The notes under the pieces are model-generated. The model saw nothing but the letters and a program-made list of their open reading frames with translations. It searched no databases and was not told the DNA's origin. The position numbers and the translations under genes are program-made. Below are positions 1,397 through 7,479 of a stretch of DNA of 20,000 nucleotides, piece after piece (position 1 is the first letter of the stretch; the number at the start of each line of letters is the position of its first letter). The DNA comes from an uncultured virus (IMG/VR IMGVR_UViG_3300032232_000272) (taxonomy: Duplodnaviria > Heunggongvirae > Uroviricota > Caudoviricetes): IMG/VR virus record IMGVR_UViG_3300032232_000272. The stretch is one strand, 5' to 3'.

Positions 1397-2305
1397 ATGG
1401 CTATTTCACGCGCACAACTATTGAAAGAGCTCCTCCCTGGCTTGAACGCTTTGTTCGGCTTAGAGTATGCTCGTTACGGCGAAGAGCACAAAGAGATCTA
1501 TGAAACTGAGACCTCTGAGCGTTCTTTTGAAGAAGAAACCAAATTGTCTGGCTTTAGCGCCGCACCTGTCAAAAACGAAGGCTCTGCCATCGCTTATGAT
1601 AACGGTCAAGAAGCATGGACAGCTCGCTATAACCACGAAACCATCGCCCTCGGCTTCTCCCTAACGGAAGAGGCAATTGAGGACAACTTGTATGACAGCC
1701 TCTCGGCTCGTTATACCAAGGCTTTGGCTCGTGCTATGGCATATACCAAGCAAGTAAAAGCTGCTGCCGTTTTAAATACGGGCTTTAGCGCAAGCTATCC
1801 AGGCGGTGACGGTGTTGCATTATTTGCAAACAACCACCCACTTGTTTCTGGTGGCACAAACAGCAACATTCCTACGACTCCTGCTGACCTCAACGAAACT
1901 TCCTTGGAAGCCGCCGTTATTCAGATCAGCTTGTGGACTGACGAACGTGATCTGTTGATCGCTGCTAAACCCAAGAAGTTGATTGTTCCACCTGCACTCC
2001 AGTTCGTTGCAACTCGCTTGCTTGAGACTGAATTGCGTGTTGGTACAGCCGACAATGACATCAACGCAATTAAGAACAATGGTTCGATTCCAGATGGTTA
2101 CACAATTAACCACTTCTTGACCGACACCAATGCTTGGTTCTTGACTACTGATGTTCCAAACGGTATGAAGCATTTTGAGCGTACCCCCCTCCAGAACAGC
2201 ATGGATGGCGATTTCGATACTGGTAACGTCCGTTACAAGGCTCGTGAGCGTTACTCTTTCGGCTGGTCTGATCCACTTGGCATGTTCGGTTCTGCCGGCG
2301 CCTAA
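1397..2305 (+). CDS. Major capsid protein (HK97 fold, resembles 'Mu-like gpT' head subunit family)
   Basis: 302 aa with a TAAGGAG RBS. Motifs 'FSLTEEAIEDNLY', 'ALARAMAYTK', 'PKKLIVPPAL', 'FLTDTNAWFL' and 'YKARERYSFGWSD' are typical of this capsid family. Followed by a strong terminator. Confidence 0.9.
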   Translation: MAISRAQLLKELLPGLNALFGLEYARYGEEHKEIYETETSERSFEEETKLSGFSAAPVKNEGSAIAYDNGQEAWTARYNHETIALGFSLTEEAIEDNLYDSLSARYTKALARAMAYTKQVKAAAVLNTGFSASYPGGDGVALFANNHPLVSGGTNSNIPTTPADLNETSLEAAVIQISLWTDERDLLIAAKPKKLIVPPALQFVATRLLETELRVGTADNDINAIKNNGSIPDGYTINHFLTDTNAWFLTTDVPNGMKHFERTPLQNSMDGDFDTGNVRYKARERYSFGWSDPLGMFGSAGA

Positions 2306-2329
2306 TCAAACCTACTCCTCTGGGTTTGG

Positions 2330-2358
2330 ATCCCCTGCTTCGGCGGGGGATTTTTTTT
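2330..2358 (+). terminator. Rho-independent terminator after the capsid gene
   Basis: ATCCCCTGC-TTCG-GCGGGGGAT hairpin (9 bp with one G-U pair, cUUCGg tetraloop) followed by a T run. Confidence 0.92.
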
Positions 2359-2367
2359 GCATATTTA

Positions 2368-2396
2368 TTGCTAAATTTATAAAAGAGGTGTATAAA
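2368..2396 (+). promoter_or_regulatory. Sigma70-like promoter
   Basis: TTGCTA (2368-2373), a 17 nt AT-rich spacer, then TATAAA (2391-2396). The predicted start near 2402-2404 coincides with the 5' end of the structured RNA. Confidence 0.55.
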
Positions 2397-2400
2397 GATA

Positions 2401-2475
2401 GGAACCGGGTGAACCGGCTTATTAGACTGCCCCGGCAGACGCTTACACGACTAATAGGCTATATCTTTGTAAGAA
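2401..2475 (+). ncRNA. Structured RNA with possible double pseudoknot; candidate Mu-gpT-DE-type motif
   Basis: Pairings: 2417-2425/2451-2459 (9 bp), 2427-2429/2436-2438, 2405-2409/2431-2435 and 2442-2447/2468-2473. Its position downstream of a gpT-like capsid gene matches the described context of the Mu-gpT-DE motif. Confidence 0.7.
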
Positions 2476-2487
2476 GGACAATTTGAA

Positions 2488-2688
2488 ATGGCAAAAACCA
2501 CATTTAGTGGCCCAGTTAGCTTGGGCACATACACTGTTGCAACCGCTCCAGCTCCAACCACAAACCAAAGTTTAACTGGCACTATTACTTTTTTCTCAAA
2601 CGGTGCTAATGGATCTCCTGTTGTAGCTTTCTACAATGGAACAAACTGGTTGCGCGTTGATACTCTTGGCGTTATTTCGGCTACCTAA
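2488..2688 (+). CDS. Small virion-associated protein (possible head fibre)
   Basis: 66 aa with an AAGGA RBS, N-terminus 'MAKTTFSGPV' and C-terminal 'VAFYNGTNW' strand motif seen in fibre proteins. Confidence 0.7.
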   Translation: MAKTTFSGPVSLGTYTVATAPAPTTNQSLTGTITFFSNGANGSPVVAFYNGTNWLRVDTLGVISAT

Positions 2689-2701
2689 TTAGGAGGCCCT
2701 T

Positions 2702-2992
2702 ATGGGTATGCAATATGATGTAAAGTCAACGGCGATAGCCGCGGCTCAGACTGACGCAGCTGTATTTGCGGGCGCTGCTCGTATCAAAGGAATGGTTGTT
2801 GGCGTTCCTACAGCTGGTGGCACTCTAACTTTAAAGAACGGTTCTGGCGGCACTACGGTGTTTTCAGTCGTTATTCCAGCAAACGCAGGTGGCGCTTCTA
2901 ATATCGTAATTCCTGGTGAAGGTATTCGCTGTGAAAACGGTATTTATGCAACCACCCCAGCCAGCATGACGGTTACGGTGTTCTATGGCTAA
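2702..2992 (+). CDS. Conserved small beta-sandwich structural protein
   Basis: 96 aa with an AGGAGG RBS and C-terminus 'IPGEGIRCENGIYAT...VTVFYG'. Confidence 0.7.
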   Translation: MGMQYDVKSTAIAAAQTDAAVFAGAARIKGMVVGVPTAGGTLTLKNGSGGTTVFSVVIPANAGGASNIVIPGEGIRCENGIYATTPASMTVTVFYG

Positions 2993-3305
2993 GAGCCCTG
3001 CTTGGACTCGTAAGGAAGGCAAAAACCCCGAAGGCGGTCTAAACGCTAAGGGGCGAGCTTCCTATAATGCCGCTAACCCTGGTAAACCTGGTTTAAAGGC
3101 TCCTCAACCAGAAGGCGGCCCACGCAAGAAGTCATTTTGTGCACGGATGTCAGGCATGAAGAAAAAGCTAACTTCCGCTAAAACCGCTAATGATCCAAAC
3201 TCACGGATTAACAAGTCTTTACGGGCTTGGAATTGCAAAGAAGGTGGCGCTGTCCGTGGCGGTGGCTGTGAAGTTAGGGGTAAGACTAAGGGTAAGATAG
3301 TATGA
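2985..3305 (+). CDS. Small basic protein (DUF6321-like) with C-terminal Gly/Lys tag
   Basis: 106 aa, Lys-rich core 'AWTRKEGKNPEGGLNAKGRASY...SFCARM...RINKSLRAWNC', then 'KEGGAVRGGGCEVRGKTKGKIV'. The family call is from memory of the motif. Confidence 0.7.
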   Translation: MAKSPAWTRKEGKNPEGGLNAKGRASYNAANPGKPGLKAPQPEGGPRKKSFCARMSGMKKKLTSAKTANDPNSRINKSLRAWNCKEGGAVRGGGCEVRGKTKGKIV

Positions 3306-3487
3306 AAGAGCATTTAACCGAAGGCACTAAACACGCTGTAGACGGCTTATCTTTAATTACAGTGGTAGGCACACTAACAGATTTATTGCCTGCGGTAGCG
3401 GCTTTATTTACGATTGTATGGACATGCATTCGTATTTATGAAACCAAGACAGTTCAAGGATGGATTGCTCGTGCCAAGCGTAAGTAA
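3302..3487 (+). CDS. Small membrane protein (holin-like topology)
   Basis: 61 aa, ATGA-coupled, with hydrophobic segment(s) 'LSLITVVGTLTDLLPAVAALFTIVWTCI' and a basic C-terminus. Confidence 0.65.
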   Translation: MKEHLTEGTKHAVDGLSLITVVGTLTDLLPAVAALFTIVWTCIRIYETKTVQGWIARAKRK

Positions 3488-3899
3488 AAAACAACACAAT
3501 TTTATGGCAGCAGTGGCTAACAACCCTAAGTTTGCCAAGAAAGCAGGAGTGCCTCGCTCTGTTGGTGAGGAATTTTTAACTGCCGATAAAGGCAAAAAAT
3601 TTAGAGAGGGCGGTATGGCGCTTAAACCAGTAGACTCAGAAGACAACCCAGGATTAGCAAAATTACCAACCGAAGTACGTAACAAAATGGGATACGCAAA
3701 GAAAGGTGGAATTATGAAACATTCAGATATTAAACAAGATATGCCAATGATGAAAAAAGTCGCTGGCGCAGCTGTTAAAGGGCATGAAAAGAAAATGCAT
3801 GGCATGGCTAAGGGCGGAGTAACCCGTGGCGATGGTTGTGTTACCAAAGGTCACACCAAAGGCAAAATGATTACTATGAAAAAAGGCGGAGCCTGCTAA
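3471..3899 (+). CDS. Basic Lys/Gly/Met-rich modular protein with four x-x-[KE]-GG motifs
   Basis: Likely GTG start at 3471 (AAGGA at 3456-3460; MPSVSKKQHNFMAAVANNPKFAKK...), in frame with the 3414 ORF. Confidence 0.7.
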   Translation: MPSVSKKQHNFMAAVANNPKFAKKAGVPRSVGEEFLTADKGKKFREGGMALKPVDSEDNPGLAKLPTEVRNKMGYAKKGGIMKHSDIKQDMPMMKKVAGAAVKGHEKKMHGMAKGGVTRGDGCVTKGHTKGKMITMKKGGAC

Positions 3900-3901
3900 T
3901 C

Positions 3902-4129
3902 ATGGCTACCAAAGATGAGTTGCCACAAGAGATGGTAGACCGCCTCACTCGTGAGGAGAACGAAGCCAATCCTATGGTTAAACTGCGTGACAAGATTTTT
4001 GGGCCTGAGAAAGTAAAGCAGCCAAAACCTGAGCCAGTTAAAAAAGCTAAGGGTGGCACAGTTAGCTCTGCATCAAAGCGAGCTGATGGATGTGCTATTA
4101 AAGGCAAAACGAAAGGACGTATCGTATGA
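3902..4129 (+). CDS. Small protein with C-terminal KAKGG...RADGCAIKGKTKGRIV tag
   Basis: ATG at 3902, two nt after the previous stop, with GGAG at 3888-3891. In frame with the 3836 ORF. Confidence 0.7.
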   Translation: MATKDELPQEMVDRLTREENEANPMVKLRDKIFGPEKVKQPKPEPVKKAKGGTVSSASKRADGCAIKGKTKGRIV

Positions 4130-4377
4130 GACCTAGCCGCGGAATGGGAGATATTGCTCCATCCAAAATGCCTAAAGGAAAACGTAAAGAGCGCCGGGAT
4201 GATACGGACTTTACCCAATATGCTAAAGGCGGCAAGGTCGGCTTATATGCCAATATTCATGCAAAACGTGAAAGAATTAAAGCAGGATCAGGGGAGAAAA
4301 TGCGCAAGGTAGGCTCCAAAGGCGCCCCTACTAAACAAGCCTTTATTGAGTCAGCAAAAACTGCAAAGAGGAGGTAG
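4126..4377 (+). CDS. Small basic bipartite protein split by YAKGG
   Basis: 83 aa, ATGA-coupled and very Lys/Arg-rich. Second half is 'KVGLYANIHAKRERIKAGSGEKMRKVGSKGAPT'. Confidence 0.7.
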   Translation: MRPSRGMGDIAPSKMPKGKRKERRDDTDFTQYAKGGKVGLYANIHAKRERIKAGSGEKMRKVGSKGAPTKQAFIESAKTAKRR

Positions 4378-4379
4378 TT

Positions 4380-4577
4380 ATGGATTTTATGAAGCAACAG
4401 ATTGATGCATCAGAGCGTTTGTTTAGAATGATGCTACAGGATCACGAAGAGCGCTTGCACCAAAGCCAAATTATGGGCGAGATTACTACTGGTCTAATGA
4501 AGAAATTGGATGAGCGTGATACTGAGATTTTGCGTTTGCGGGATGAGCTAAAGATTCTCAAAGGAATTCAAAAGTGA
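4380..4577 (+). CDS. Hypothetical coiled-coil protein
   Basis: 65 aa with a GAGGAGGT RBS and heptad-like C-terminus. Confidence 0.65.
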   Translation: MDFMKQQIDASERLFRMMLQDHEERLHQSQIMGEITTGLMKKLDERDTEILRLRDELKILKGIQK

Positions 4578-4723
4578 ACTTTGTTTTTACATGGATCCTT
4601 GATCTCTTTAAAAGAGATGAGCCAATCATTCCTACTGCGCCTATTAAATCACAGCGTAAGAGAAGACCAGCAGTTAAAAAAGCTGCTCCAAAGATTACTG
4701 TCAGAAAGAAAAAGGCAGCCTAA
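4574..4723 (+). CDS. 49 aa protein with amphipathic N-terminus and histone-H1-like K/A/P/R tail (not in ORF track)
   Basis: GTGA overlap with the previous stop, TAATG overlap with the next start, AAGGA upstream. MNFVFTWILDLFKRDEPIIPTAPIKSQRKRRPAVKKAAPKITVRKKKAA exactly fills the gap. Confidence 0.65.
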   Translation: MNFVFTWILDLFKRDEPIIPTAPIKSQRKRRPAVKKAAPKITVRKKKAA

Positions 4724-5649
4724 TGACCACAACTGGGATTAGTTCATTCAACCTTGATATTAACGATATCATTGAAGAAGCATTTGAGCGGTGCGGGAAA
4801 GAATTGCGTACCGGCTACGACTTTAGAACAGCGCGTCGTAGCTTAAACCTTCTTTCTATTGAATGGGCTAATCGAGGTCTAAATCTTTGGACGATTGAAC
4901 AAGGGCAGATTCAGTTAAATACTGGGCAGATTACTTACCCATATCCAACAGATACAGTAGACCTGTTAGATCAGGTTATTCGTACCAATAACGGTCAGAA
5001 TATGACCCAAATTGATATTAATATCAGCCGTATTAGTGAATCTACCTATTCCACATTACCTAATAAAAGCGCTCAAGGGCGCCCTATTCAGGTATGGATT
5101 AATCGTCAAACAGGCGGTATTGCCAGCATTCCACAGACTACTTTGTCGGCTAATTTATCCTCCACAGCAACCACGATTTCGGTGCTTTCGGTAGCAGATC
5201 TACCAGCCACTGGCTTTATAAATGTAGATAACGAGACTATCCTCTATCAAAACATCGTAAACGGGCAATTAACCAATTGTTTCCGTGGTCAGAATGGTAC
5301 AACCGCAGCTTCCCATTTAAGTGGCGCTAATGTCTTTGTAAACCGTCTACCATCGATTAATGTATGGCCCAGCCCCAATGCGCCTGGCAATCAGTATATG
5401 TTCGTCTATTGGCGTATGAGACGGATGCAGGATACTGGAACTGGTGTTAGCACAGAAGACATTCCATTCCGTTTCTTAAACTGCCTAATTGCTGGCTTGG
5501 CGTATCAATTAAGCAACAAGCTCGCTGATATTGATCCAAATAGAATAATGATGTTAAAAGCAGATTATGAGCAACAATGGCAATTGGCTGCCGACGAAGA
5601 CAGGGAAAAAGCCCCGATCCGTTTTGTGCCAAGAGCATTATTCTATTGA
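4723..5649 (+). CDS. Head-to-tail adaptor / tail tubular-like protein with inserted domain
   Basis: 308 aa. N-terminal 'IIEEAFERCG...TARRSLNLL..EWANRG', central 'GRP' and helical C-terminus 'IPFRFLNCLIAGLAYQL...DYEQQW' fit podovirus adaptor proteins. Confidence 0.65.
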   Translation: MTTTGISSFNLDINDIIEEAFERCGKELRTGYDFRTARRSLNLLSIEWANRGLNLWTIEQGQIQLNTGQITYPYPTDTVDLLDQVIRTNNGQNMTQIDINISRISESTYSTLPNKSAQGRPIQVWINRQTGGIASIPQTTLSANLSSTATTISVLSVADLPATGFINVDNETILYQNIVNGQLTNCFRGQNGTTAASHLSGANVFVNRLPSINVWPSPNAPGNQYMFVYWRMRRMQDTGTGVSTEDIPFRFLNCLIAGLAYQLSNKLADIDPNRIMMLKADYEQQWQLAADEDREKAPIRFVPRALFY

Positions 5650-5657
5650 GGATATGA

Positions 5658-6083
5658 ATGCCATCACGTTTTGCGTCTGGGAAATGGTCAATTGCGGAAT
5701 GCGACAGGTGCGCACAACGCTATAAGTTAAAAGAATTAAAGATTCAGATTCTTAAAACTAAGCCGTATCGTATTAAAGTTTGTCCGACTTGCTGGGATCC
5801 AGATCATCCACAATTACAATTGGGAATGTATCCAGTTAATGATCCTCAAGCAGTTCGGGATCCAAGACCTGATGTTAGTTATTTGGTTTCTGGACAAAGT
5901 GGATTACAGACAAATCAGACTGGTATTGGCCCAGACGGGTTTGGCAGTCCAGAAGGTGGTAGTAGAGTGTTTCAATGGGGGTGGGCGCCAGTCGGTGGCA
6001 CAAGAGCGGATGATGCTGGTCTAACGCCAAATGATTTGGTAATATCTGTACAGGTGGGATCGGTAACAGTAACAACAACTTAG
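5658..6083 (+). CDS. Conserved hypothetical protein with CxxC...CxxC zinc-ribbon-like N-terminus
   Basis: 141 aa with CDRC and CPTC, then 'WDPDHPQL...DPQAVRDPRPD'. GAGG RBS. Confidence 0.7.
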   Translation: MPSRFASGKWSIAECDRCAQRYKLKELKIQILKTKPYRIKVCPTCWDPDHPQLQLGMYPVNDPQAVRDPRPDVSYLVSGQSGLQTNQTGIGPDGFGSPEGGSRVFQWGWAPVGGTRADDAGLTPNDLVISVQVGSVTVTTT

Positions 6084-6092
6084 GAGTAAAAC

Positions 6093-6287
6093 ATGGGATT
6101 CAGAAAATCAGCAGGCGGTATTGAAAAGAAAGGTAAAACCGATACTAAGGTTTACCCTAATGATGGTAAACACATCGTTGACCAAGGCCCAAAGAAAAAC
6201 GTCAGCACGTTAAATCGTGATATGAAAGCTATGGGTCGTAACTTAGCTCGCGCTAAGAACCAAATGAAATCAGGAAGAGGTCGATAA
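6093..6287 (+). CDS. Small basic protein with N-terminal variant of the shared tag
   Basis: 64 aa with an AGGAG RBS, 'SAGGIEKKGKT' and 'MKAMGRNLARAKNQ'. Confidence 0.7.
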   Translation: MGFRKSAGGIEKKGKTDTKVYPNDGKHIVDQGPKKNVSTLNRDMKAMGRNLARAKNQMKSGRGR

Positions 6288-6553
6288 TGGCTAAGTTCTC
6301 TATGAAAAAAGGTGGCAAAGAAGTCGGCCCAGCCGAAGTCTATGCAGAGCCACACAATATGCAGGGTGGTGCTATTAACGTAAACACATACAGTGGTTAC
6401 GAGCCAGGCGCTAAGGTTATTGATAATATCAACATCTCTGTTGGCGGTATCAGCAAAGGTAACTACAAGCCAGTAAATCCATATGGCGTTGGCGAGATGC
6501 GCGGTTATGGCGCTGCTACTAAAGGTCGCAAGATTAGCGGAAAAATGGGCTAA
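6287..6553 (+). CDS. Small Gly/Lys-rich protein with MKKGG and RGYGAATKG motifs
   Basis: 88 aa, TAATG-coupled at both ends. Confidence 0.7.
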
Positions 6554-7479
6554 TGAATTACGTCCAGCTATACCAAGCCGTTCAGGATTATGCGGAATCT
6601 ACAGAGCAACTCTTTGTAGATAATATTTCCACCTTTGTCCGTCAGGCAGAGGAAAGGGTATATAACACCGTACAAATCCCGTCGTTACGTAAAAACGTAA
6701 CTGGTACGCTGACGTCTAGCAATAAATATTTAAGCTGTCCAAATGACTATCTGTCTACGTTTTCAATGGCGGTTATTGAAGGTTATGGCACAGCTAACGA
6801 AACCTATACGTATTTACTCAATAAAGACGTTAACTTTATTCGTGAATCCTACCCAAACCCCACGGATACTGGTCTGCCTAAATACTATGCGCTCTTTGGT
6901 TCTCAGTACTCTAACTCCAACGAACTGTCTTTTATATTAGGCCCAACTCCAAATAGCAACTATACAGCTGAATTGCACTATTATTACTACCCAATTTCAA
7001 TTGTTCAGGGCGCCATTTCTGGTGGCACTGTTACGGGCGGTTCTAGCTATGTAAACGGGATTTACAGTAATGTACCGTTATCTGGTGGTCAAGGCTCTGG
7101 GGCAGTAGCAAATATTGTGGTAAGTGGCAATGCTGTAACCAGTGTAACCATTAAGAACCAAGGTAATTTCTATGCCGCTGGAGATGTTTTAACGGCGGCT
7201 TCTTCTTATATTGGGGGCTCTGGTACGGGCTTTTTATACACAGTTACCTCTGTGGATAACGCTGCTGGCACATCTTGGCTTGGTGATAACTATGATCCAT
7301 GCTTGCTATATGGCACATTGCGTGAAGCCGTTATATTCCAAAAAGGTGAGCAAGATATGGTCGCTTACTACGAGAAGCAATTCCAAGAGGCTATGGGTCA
7401 ATTGAATCGCCTTGGCACAGGTCTTGAGCGTGGTGATGCATATCGCGATGGTCAGGCTAAGATTAAGGTTAATCCATGA
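6553..7479 (+). CDS. Second adaptor-like (neck/tail) protein with inserted beta domain
   Basis: 308 aa: '[13 protein letters not shown]...FVRQAEERV', 'GLPKYYA', 'LGPTP...ELHYYYYP', 'WLGDN...LLYGTLREA'. Confidence 0.65.

Follow-up and report, generated by a model that had tools for sequence, protein, structure and literature searches.

How short-tailed phages choose the proteins that enter the head interior is largely an open question, and a defined tag makes it testable. The locus described here lies in a 20,000-nucleotide stretch of an uncultured virus (IMG/VR record IMGVR_UViG_3300032232_000272; Caudoviricetes), hereafter the window, meaning this stretch at its full length. The window carries the module for head, neck and tail of an HTVC023P-type podophage, a phage with a short tail. 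Several small, basic proteins encoded in its head-neck block carry a common terminal peptide. Sequence comparison strongly supports that this peptide is a portable tag, conserved at the peptide level, which unrelated basic proteins of the virion operon have in common. The reading favored here, held tentatively and with a little less than even confidence, is that the tag is a procapsid address label, working like the capsid-targeting sequence (CTS) of phage T4.

An earlier inspection of the letters alone (the sequence-only reading) had singled out five peptides of about 13 residues. All five lie where they had been placed, as exact translations of five open reading frames (ORFs) on the plus strand. 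The proteins are indeed basic, with isoelectric points of 9.7–10.9, and outside the tag they belong to different families. An alignment of 28.8% between g2985 and g3471 (Table 1), seen with composition correction off, is read as compositional. The core of the tag (type A) was captured in a profile of 85 motif instances from capsid-seeded relatives (L001–L080), with the window left out. Four proteins, g2985, g3471, g3902 and g6093, match this profile, each with 0 of 2,000 composition-preserving shuffles reaching the real score, and no other among the 32 window proteins tested scores above 3 bits. Three shuffles of each of 38,456 ORFs gave one match of at least 15 bits and none of 20 or more. 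The fifth protein, g6287, scores −1.7 bits, and 415 of 2,000 shuffles score as high. The notion of one tag on five proteins thus stands for four of them; the peptide at 6500 in g6287 is a distinct subtype (type B).

The tag is both longer than first described, at about 25–30 residues, and bipartite. Its full type A form reads [M/Y/F]-[A/K]-x-G-G, a spacer, then R-A-D-G-[I/C/V]-A-x-[K/R]-G-K-T-[K/R]-G-[K/R]-[M/I]-[V/C/I]-stop, with two or three residues between the core and the C-terminus. The leader had been given as [KE]GG, and a Cys had been taken as conserved. That core position is Ile in 58%, Cys in 27% and Val in 14% of the 85 seed cores, which rules out Cys as an essential residue, it being one of three allowed there. 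A Gly-Gly lies within 25 residues upstream in 245 of the 248 C-terminal tags analysed, preceded at three places by Met, Tyr or Phe in 82%. The spacer to the core is 5–26 residues long, which makes the two parts separable. The portion after the Gly-Gly has a median net charge of +5. When the tag alone is folded, the prediction is of low confidence (predicted local distance difference test, pLDDT, 64.8) and contains one short helix. Alignment A1, with tag copy 3 as its first row, has no conserved Glu. Among 404 distinct type A proteins, the core is C-terminal in 261, 9–25 residues from the C-terminus in 115, N-terminal in 18 and internal in 10. In g3471, 11 residues follow the core before the protein ends, and orthologs of g6093, in which the core is N-terminal, start with M-A-[Y/F]-x-x-S-A-D-G-[I/V]-A-K-K-G-K-T.

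Conservation resides in the peptide, as the sequence-only reading had proposed from the differing codons. The proportions of synonymous (pS) and nonsynonymous (pN) differences are 0.73 and 0.20 over 1,500 between-genome pairs and 0.66 and 0.13 within genomes, computed on 213 core rows that were picked by motif, which depresses pN. Invariant residues use many synonymous codons in the same 213 cores, and the invariant Gly uses all four of its codons in 73 tags from loci that were not found by a DNA pattern. Such free synonymous variation at invariant residues shows that selection acts on the peptide; it also rules out a DNA repeat or an RNA element.

The tag accompanies this capsid family. All 28 capsid-seeded IMG/VR loci that span from the capsid gene to the second adaptor gene hold one to five type A genes. 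Sorted by capsid identity to the window, type A genes are present in all 68 spanning loci with at least 80% (among them 25 picked by tag pattern and some pieces of a single contig that overlap), in three of four at 73–80% and in none of 36 below 73%. Searched with nothing but the tag pattern, IMG/VR returned at least 134 loci; among the matches listed, all 73 with long flanks contain head or neck genes of this clade, and the 61 short loci are mostly uninformative. For 313 of the 404 type A proteins an anchor gene is present in the locus, and 279 of these precede the first or second adaptor gene. The remainder consists of 30 that follow the capsid gene with the other anchors missing, three that cross the start of the circular genome G004 and one that is inverted.

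This placement bears on the possibility that the tagged proteins are late factors outside the virion whose tag binds a host protein, with shut-off of the host, binding to ribosomes or membranes, timing of lysis or a degradation signal as conceivable functions. Holin-like genes are interleaved in the tagged block, no virion proteome of the clade was found, and host protease tags, too, typically have a conserved free C-terminus. Against such a role stand the restriction of the tagged genes to the head-neck block and a motif shared with ejection proteins (below); the tag also diverges along with the capsid protein, a weak argument since kin share traits. A role outside the virion is considered very unlikely. 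Late expression is recorded for two genes of cultured HTVC027P, gp47 and gp50, which at the last time point reach about 8,460 and 4,075 transcripts per million next to 74,585 for the capsid gene (Table S3 of PMC12753301). Both products are small, basic and Gly-Gly-bearing and, by inspection, without the type A core; their late expression therefore supports the gene class and not the tag.

Beyond these loci, a 31-position profile run against 1.84 billion representatives matches 8,516 protein clusters (defined at 50% identity) at an E-value of 0.001, and 2,011 at 1e-10. The best 150 of the 8,516 are 30–417 residues long, and in 137 of them the core stands exactly five residues from the C-terminus. 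One profile thereby groups 8,516 unannotated clusters and marks the freshwater branch. Cultured phage MinM2 has one type A protein, MM2_5, and phages DSL-LC04 and HTVC023P have diverged tails. In the ESM Atlas, the nearest 30 clusters are all unnamed viral hypotheticals.

What the tag is attached to varies widely. The 237 payloads analysed (21–426 residues, median 85) fall into 123 BLAST clusters, of which 101 are singletons and the largest, with 64 members, is chained through small common modules. Order-promoting residues make up 14.7% of the payloads, compared with 27.8% of the capsid protein and 31.5% of the adaptor, and 89% of payloads are net positive. A tblastn search with g3902 found no match in 50,697 phage records.

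Portability is most visible in the DUF6321 domain, on which no paper was found in the open-access literature. Of 58 distinct copies, 46 end at the last Cys of the domain and 12, including that of g2985, are tagged directly after it, the last Cys then occupying the bulky-residue place of the Gly-Gly motif. A DNA tree of 53 domains, with the tag columns omitted and copies without the N-terminal anchor dropped, needs three changes in tag state, at least two of which well-supported branches make unavoidable; a single change suffices in none of 200 bootstrap trees. One gain with two losses could account for the three changes, and in either case the tag comes and goes on the same domain, which is what is meant here by portable.

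A second body with relatives elsewhere is the N-module of g3471 (3471–3611), which is 72% identical over 47 residues to phiKZ gp165.1 (PHIKZ165.1). Matches to it occur in 125 phage records, mostly of jumbo phages, where the module stands alone or starts larger proteins labelled structural. It opens 121Q-type proteins annotated as structural, and its PHROG matches are the N-termini of 'virion structural protein' families.

The composition of these proteins raises the alternative that the tag itself is a sequence-specific, basic DNA-binding or DNA-condensing peptide. Tagged proteins would then enter with the DNA, the payloads would be near-neutral filler and extra copies would raise the dose. 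The charge of the tag fits this proposal, as does the mostly basic character of the payloads and their poverty in order-promoting residues. So do the protamine-like proteins of marine relatives, built of repeated Lys-rich Gly-Gly units (L290:12091–12294, L265:6426–6665, L353:15834–16118), and the lysines of T4 internal proteins, described as contacting packaged DNA (PMC3012670). However, the invariant Asp, Gly, Ala and Thr and the fixed distance to the C-terminus suit a protein pocket better than charge neutralisation, and the Gly-Gly motif also stands in acidic contexts in ejection proteins. A DNA-binding tag is on balance unlikely.

The Gly-Gly element is a separate motif that is more widely used than the tag, a point missed by the sequence-only reading. 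Statements on ejection and protease genes derive from relatives G001–G005, in which the ejection block is recognised by a PHROG 'DNA ejection protein' match and a transglycosylase domain. In five complete genomes, the small-gene block contains [M/Y/F]-x-x-G-G 35 times against 10.3 expected from shuffles, the ejection block (whose ORF sets include some spurious frames) 41 times against 18.5, and all other ORFs together 41 times against 47.8. A narrower form derived from the tag is sharper still, with 19 against 1.5, 17 against 2.5 and 2 against 4.2, respectively. Off-register controls in the small-gene block stay near expectation when the spacing is one longer (8 against 8.7) and reach 12 against 8.1 when it is one shorter. 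Within the window, g4126, absent from the list of the sequence-only reading, carries the motif alone.

Sharing with ejection proteins also bears on the idea that the tag anchors minor structural proteins outside the head or neck, with the hypervariable, disordered payloads as an exposed coat or decoy layer. The genes do have head, decoration and adaptor genes as neighbours, exposed parts are typically hypervariable, and the tag types flank the adaptor genes at fixed positions. Nevertheless, the payloads are basic and disordered-looking, with no immunoglobulin-like or other surface domain, and the motif is common to ejection proteins and not enriched elsewhere, leaving an outside anchor quite unlikely.

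A bulky residue followed by Gly-Gly is also reminiscent of a processing site. The core precursors of adenovirus are cut by adenain, a cysteine protease, at (M/I/L)-x-G-G, and are likewise basic proteins punctuated by a bulky residue and Gly-Gly. Unlike the adenain sites, the spacing here is one residue longer, and the one-shorter form rises only to the count just given for the small-gene block. In T5, the tape measure protein pb2 is cut after R1127 (PMC10038345), where the sequence reads V-P-R and then A-E-G-G. If the motif is cut in the present clade, the T5 analogy suggests a cut before [A/K]-x-G-G. Close to its cleaved end, lambda gpH contains FATGG and YATGG, the site itself being described as unmapped in PMC12617516. 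As in these two proteins, where x-A-x-G-G lies at or near a maturation cut, the motif of this clade stands at module junctions of ejection-block proteins in the five genomes. In T5 pb2 and lambda gpH, however, it heads a domain of 90–120 residues in a single tail protein, whereas here it belongs to a short peptide on many small proteins that have no tape-measure-type C-terminal domain after it. The first ejection protein of the clade has a C-domain that begins at the Gly-Gly motif and gives weak tape measure matches (E 0.2–0.9); direct alignments of that domain with lambda gpH and with T5 pb2C are not significant.

It has accordingly been considered that the tagged proteins are polyproteins, in which a cut at the Gly-Gly motif frees a tag of 20–25 residues that is active in head maturation or in the host. 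The regular Gly-Gly upstream of C-terminal cores, with its variable spacer, would suit such a cut, as would the T5 and lambda sites. The motif also divides the modules of g3471 (3600–3614, 3804–3818 and 3876–3890) and trails the N-module in 60 of its 79 copies in this clade. Of eight jumbo-phage copies examined, two (phiKZ and PhiPA3) continue into S-x-E and a short tail, fitting the S/A/G-X-E motif of the phiKZ head protease (PMC5694885); three end with the module and three differ. The parallel of Gly-Gly here with S-x-E there, drawn from two of the eight copies, is suggestive only. Against a cut, the motif is missing from N-terminal cores such as that of g6093, alignments of the ejection-protein C-domain with its supposed counterparts fall short of significance, and no protease was found among the proteins scanned. 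A released peptide is thus rather improbable, although it would be compatible with an address label if loading were followed by cutting.

The protease scans, over overlapping sets of 36, 24 and 32 structural and core proteins, brought up only a tail-fibre S74 domain and an early-region DUF2201, and gave no match to a clan CE protease; an unrecognised enzyme, or one of the host, may nevertheless be at work. One candidate, g286 (286–729), encodes 147 residues between the scaffold-like and cement-like genes and is conserved in all five complete relatives. A protease role for it is not supported; it has no invariant Cys, His or Ser.

The favored, tentative reading is that the tag addresses proteins to the head interior. 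This rests on a constant terminal peptide on changing, disordered bodies, on its confinement to the head-neck block and on a motif common with ejection proteins. From these features we infer a virion location, a binding partner, DNA binding and possible cleavage. Late in infection, the phage would make a variable set of small, basic, disordered proteins, whose common terminal peptide would bind a conserved site on the assembling head, at the inner face of the capsid protein, the scaffold or the portal. Binding would pack whatever is attached into the procapsid. The likeliest place for the Lys/Arg-rich passengers would be on the packaged DNA, some of them perhaps being delivered together with it. 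Proteins of the head interior would have a further recognition site in the upstream [M/Y/F]-[A/K]-x-G-G, at which cutting may also occur. Also counted in favor of this reading are the portability of the tag on DUF6321, the module of g3471 that opens 121Q-type proteins labelled structural, the late class of gp47 and gp50 in HTVC027P, the T5 cut ahead of A-E-G-G and the precedent of T4, whose diverse internal proteins have only a targeting sequence in common.

The nearest analogies had been sought in encapsulins and in T4, and the tag belongs to neither system by position or sequence. Encapsulin cargo-loading peptides are short terminal peptides on flexible linkers, hydrophobic in consensus, that dock enzyme cargo inside the HK97-type shell of cellular nanocompartments. 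Here, too, a short terminal peptide is proposed to dock cargo inside a shell, but the shell gene shares a phage operon with the genes for portal, terminase and ejection proteins, the tag is basic and the payloads do not look enzymatic. The T4 CTS is the only conserved part of diverse internal proteins (PMC3012670), and a tag that is the sole common part of a variable set of small proteins, proposed to load the prohead, resembles that of IPI–III. The CTS is an N-terminal propeptide of 10–20 residues, cut after Glu by the phage head protease (PMC3012670, PMC5694885). By contrast, the present tag is mostly C-terminal, basic, Gly-rich and bipartite, lacks a Glu site, has [M/Y/F]-[A/K]-x-G-G at its junction and belongs to a podophage with no head protease found among the proteins scanned. 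IPI* of T4 is a folded inhibitor, and the payloads here look disordered.

Several observations weigh against an address label. No virion proteome or structure of the clade was found in the open-access literature, and a PDB sequence search with the tag and capsid profiles gave no match. The tag does not copy a scaffold tail, matching neither the end of the window's scaffold nor the tails of g286. The type A core vanishes from every spanning locus below 73% capsid identity. No folded cargo domain is apparent, with 0 of the 150 best tagged clusters reaching a Pfam cut-off, and the structural annotation of the 121Q-type proteins consists of database labels not traced to experiments. The lack of a head protease in the scanned sets counts here as well, and the g286 model (pLDDT 81.7) has a best PDB Z of 4.0 and only uncharacterised viral matches, none protease-like. 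In the ejection block, the off-register controls are also raised, at 25 against 16.7 for the one-shorter and 28 against 18.3 for the one-longer spacing. Finally, the terminase large subunit carries F/Y-R-x-G-G about 25–30 residues from its C-terminus in five of five genomes (G001–G005), so internal proteins are not the only bearers of the short motif; in the terminase it may cap a helix or serve as that same recognition motif. Co-folding of the capsid protein (alignment A2) with the tag (A1) scored 0.00 with this one partner tried, which speaks neither for nor against.

This particular tag, bipartite and C-terminal, is new here, as are its portability and its scale; the open-access literature yielded no account of it, subscription papers and bioRxiv supplements lying outside the search. 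A more far-reaching reading, which we regard as somewhat unlikely, is a cargo system of podophages that lacks a recognisable head protease: a bipartite tag of about 25 residues would make almost any disordered sequence head-packaged and possibly injected. According to bioRxiv 2019.12.14.876532, HTVC023P-type phages are the most abundant marine phage group known. If the cargo reading were true, a very abundant aquatic phage group would have an open-ended library of thousands of fast-turnover passenger proteins, and the Gly-Gly element would be read by machinery that also handles ejection proteins. A tag that loads cargo would also provide a short capsid-loading handle for engineering.

The type B tail of g6287 reads R-G-x-G-A-A-T-K-G...R-G-P-M-A-stop, and none of 2,000 shuffles reaches the score of g6287 on its own profile (Table 1). 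Exactly one type B gene is present in each of the 28 capsid-seeded loci spanning the block, and in genomes read through it directly precedes the second adaptor gene. A tblastn search of g6287 against cultured phages gave no credible match. A common origin of types A and B is likely from the sequences. Both contain x-x-G-[A/I]-A-x-[K/R]-G, and HHalign relates them weakly (probability 8.7%, P 0.0038). Intermediate tails occur in distant relatives, with 34 sense-strand matches in 2,839 ORFs against none in 3,645 antisense ORFs (108 loci). For a profile of 29 distant tails, the number of shuffles per 2,000 scoring as high is 0 for g6287, 3 for g3902, 9 for g2985 and 20 for g3471, and 1,610 for g6093, which gains no support. 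The pattern that collected these tails was chosen knowing both subtypes, so the link is partly circular. A marine relative (L275:740–1099 and 6249–6482) has another common C-terminal tail, G-G-E-V-x-I-x-K-G-x-D-Y-I-K-D-L, on small proteins.

Table 1. Tagged genes, tag copies and flanking genes of the window (type A and type B scores are from the respective profiles).
Feature	Position	Strand	Evidence or score
Major capsid protein (context; candidate tag partner)	1397..2305	+	Pfam Phage_capsid_4; PHROG major head protein
g2985: DUF6321 domain with C-terminal tag appended	2985..3305	+	PF19846, E 1e-19
Tag copy 1, type A, GGG-C-E variant: CKEGG 3234–3248, core 3255–3293, runs to C-terminus	3234..3302	+	27.4 bits (type A)
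g3471: modular basic protein, GTG start by inspection, N-module common with phiKZ gp165.1	3471..3899	+	
Tag copy 2, type A: MAKGG, core 3825–3863, then extra MKKGG-A-C end	3804..3896	+	33.0 bits (type A)
g3902: variable, disordered-looking payload with canonical tag	3902..4129	+	No Pfam match at cut-off, no PHROG match
Tag copy 3, canonical type A: KAKGG 4043–4057, spacer, core 4079–4117, R-I-V-stop	4043..4126	+	34.4 bits (type A)
g4126: small basic protein, Gly-Gly motif YAKGG 4219–4233, without core	4126..4377	+	PHROG 16028 module starts right behind the motif
Adaptor-family gene, closes main tagged block	4723..5649	+	Pfam SU10_adaptor
g6093: type A core N-terminal (6105–6140), without Gly-Gly leader	6093..6287	+	16.3 bits (type A)
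g6287: N-terminal MKKGG (6302–6316), C-terminal type B tail (6500–6550)	6287..6553	+	39.9 bits (type B)
Second adaptor-family gene (context; downstream anchor)	6553..7479	+	Pfam SU10_adaptor

The capsid protein of the window is 73.7% identical to those of MinM2, Pag-Yong1 and Pra-JY27, 64.5% to that of DSL-LC04 and 62.9% to that of pelagiphage HTVC023P. In complete relatives (61–79 kb), the genes on the head side are ordered terminase, portal, GroES-like, scaffold-like, g286 family, cement-like and capsid, followed downstream by the small basic gene block, two adaptor-family genes, tail, lysis and ejection proteins. Contigs from public runs (four runs, at most four studies) cover all 30 bins of 2300–6700, and one independent contig, with 81 differences to the window, covers 3552–6549; the arrangement is therefore not an assembly artefact. 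No RNA data set is listed among the sequencing runs. In contigs of two runs, 163 additional letters lie between g6287 and the next gene (6549–6552), a variable insertion point.

Directly 3' of the capsid gene and upstream of the small-gene block is a strong terminator-like hairpin (2328–2353; 11 pairs and a T run). Both adaptor-family proteins hold an inserted region that matches tail and baseplate protein families. In one relative, a 246-residue gene lies directly 3' of the capsid gene (L059:3164–3904), and by eye we take it to resemble a homing endonuclease. Three records, OQ594354 (L081), OL906435 and PP438419, are all 65,014 long with equal capsid scores, yet have been assigned three different cyanobacterial hosts, and these assignments look doubtful. 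Capsid relatives in GTDB (L321–L378) sit in genome bins of many unrelated bacterial and archaeal phyla and are probably mis-binned phage contigs.

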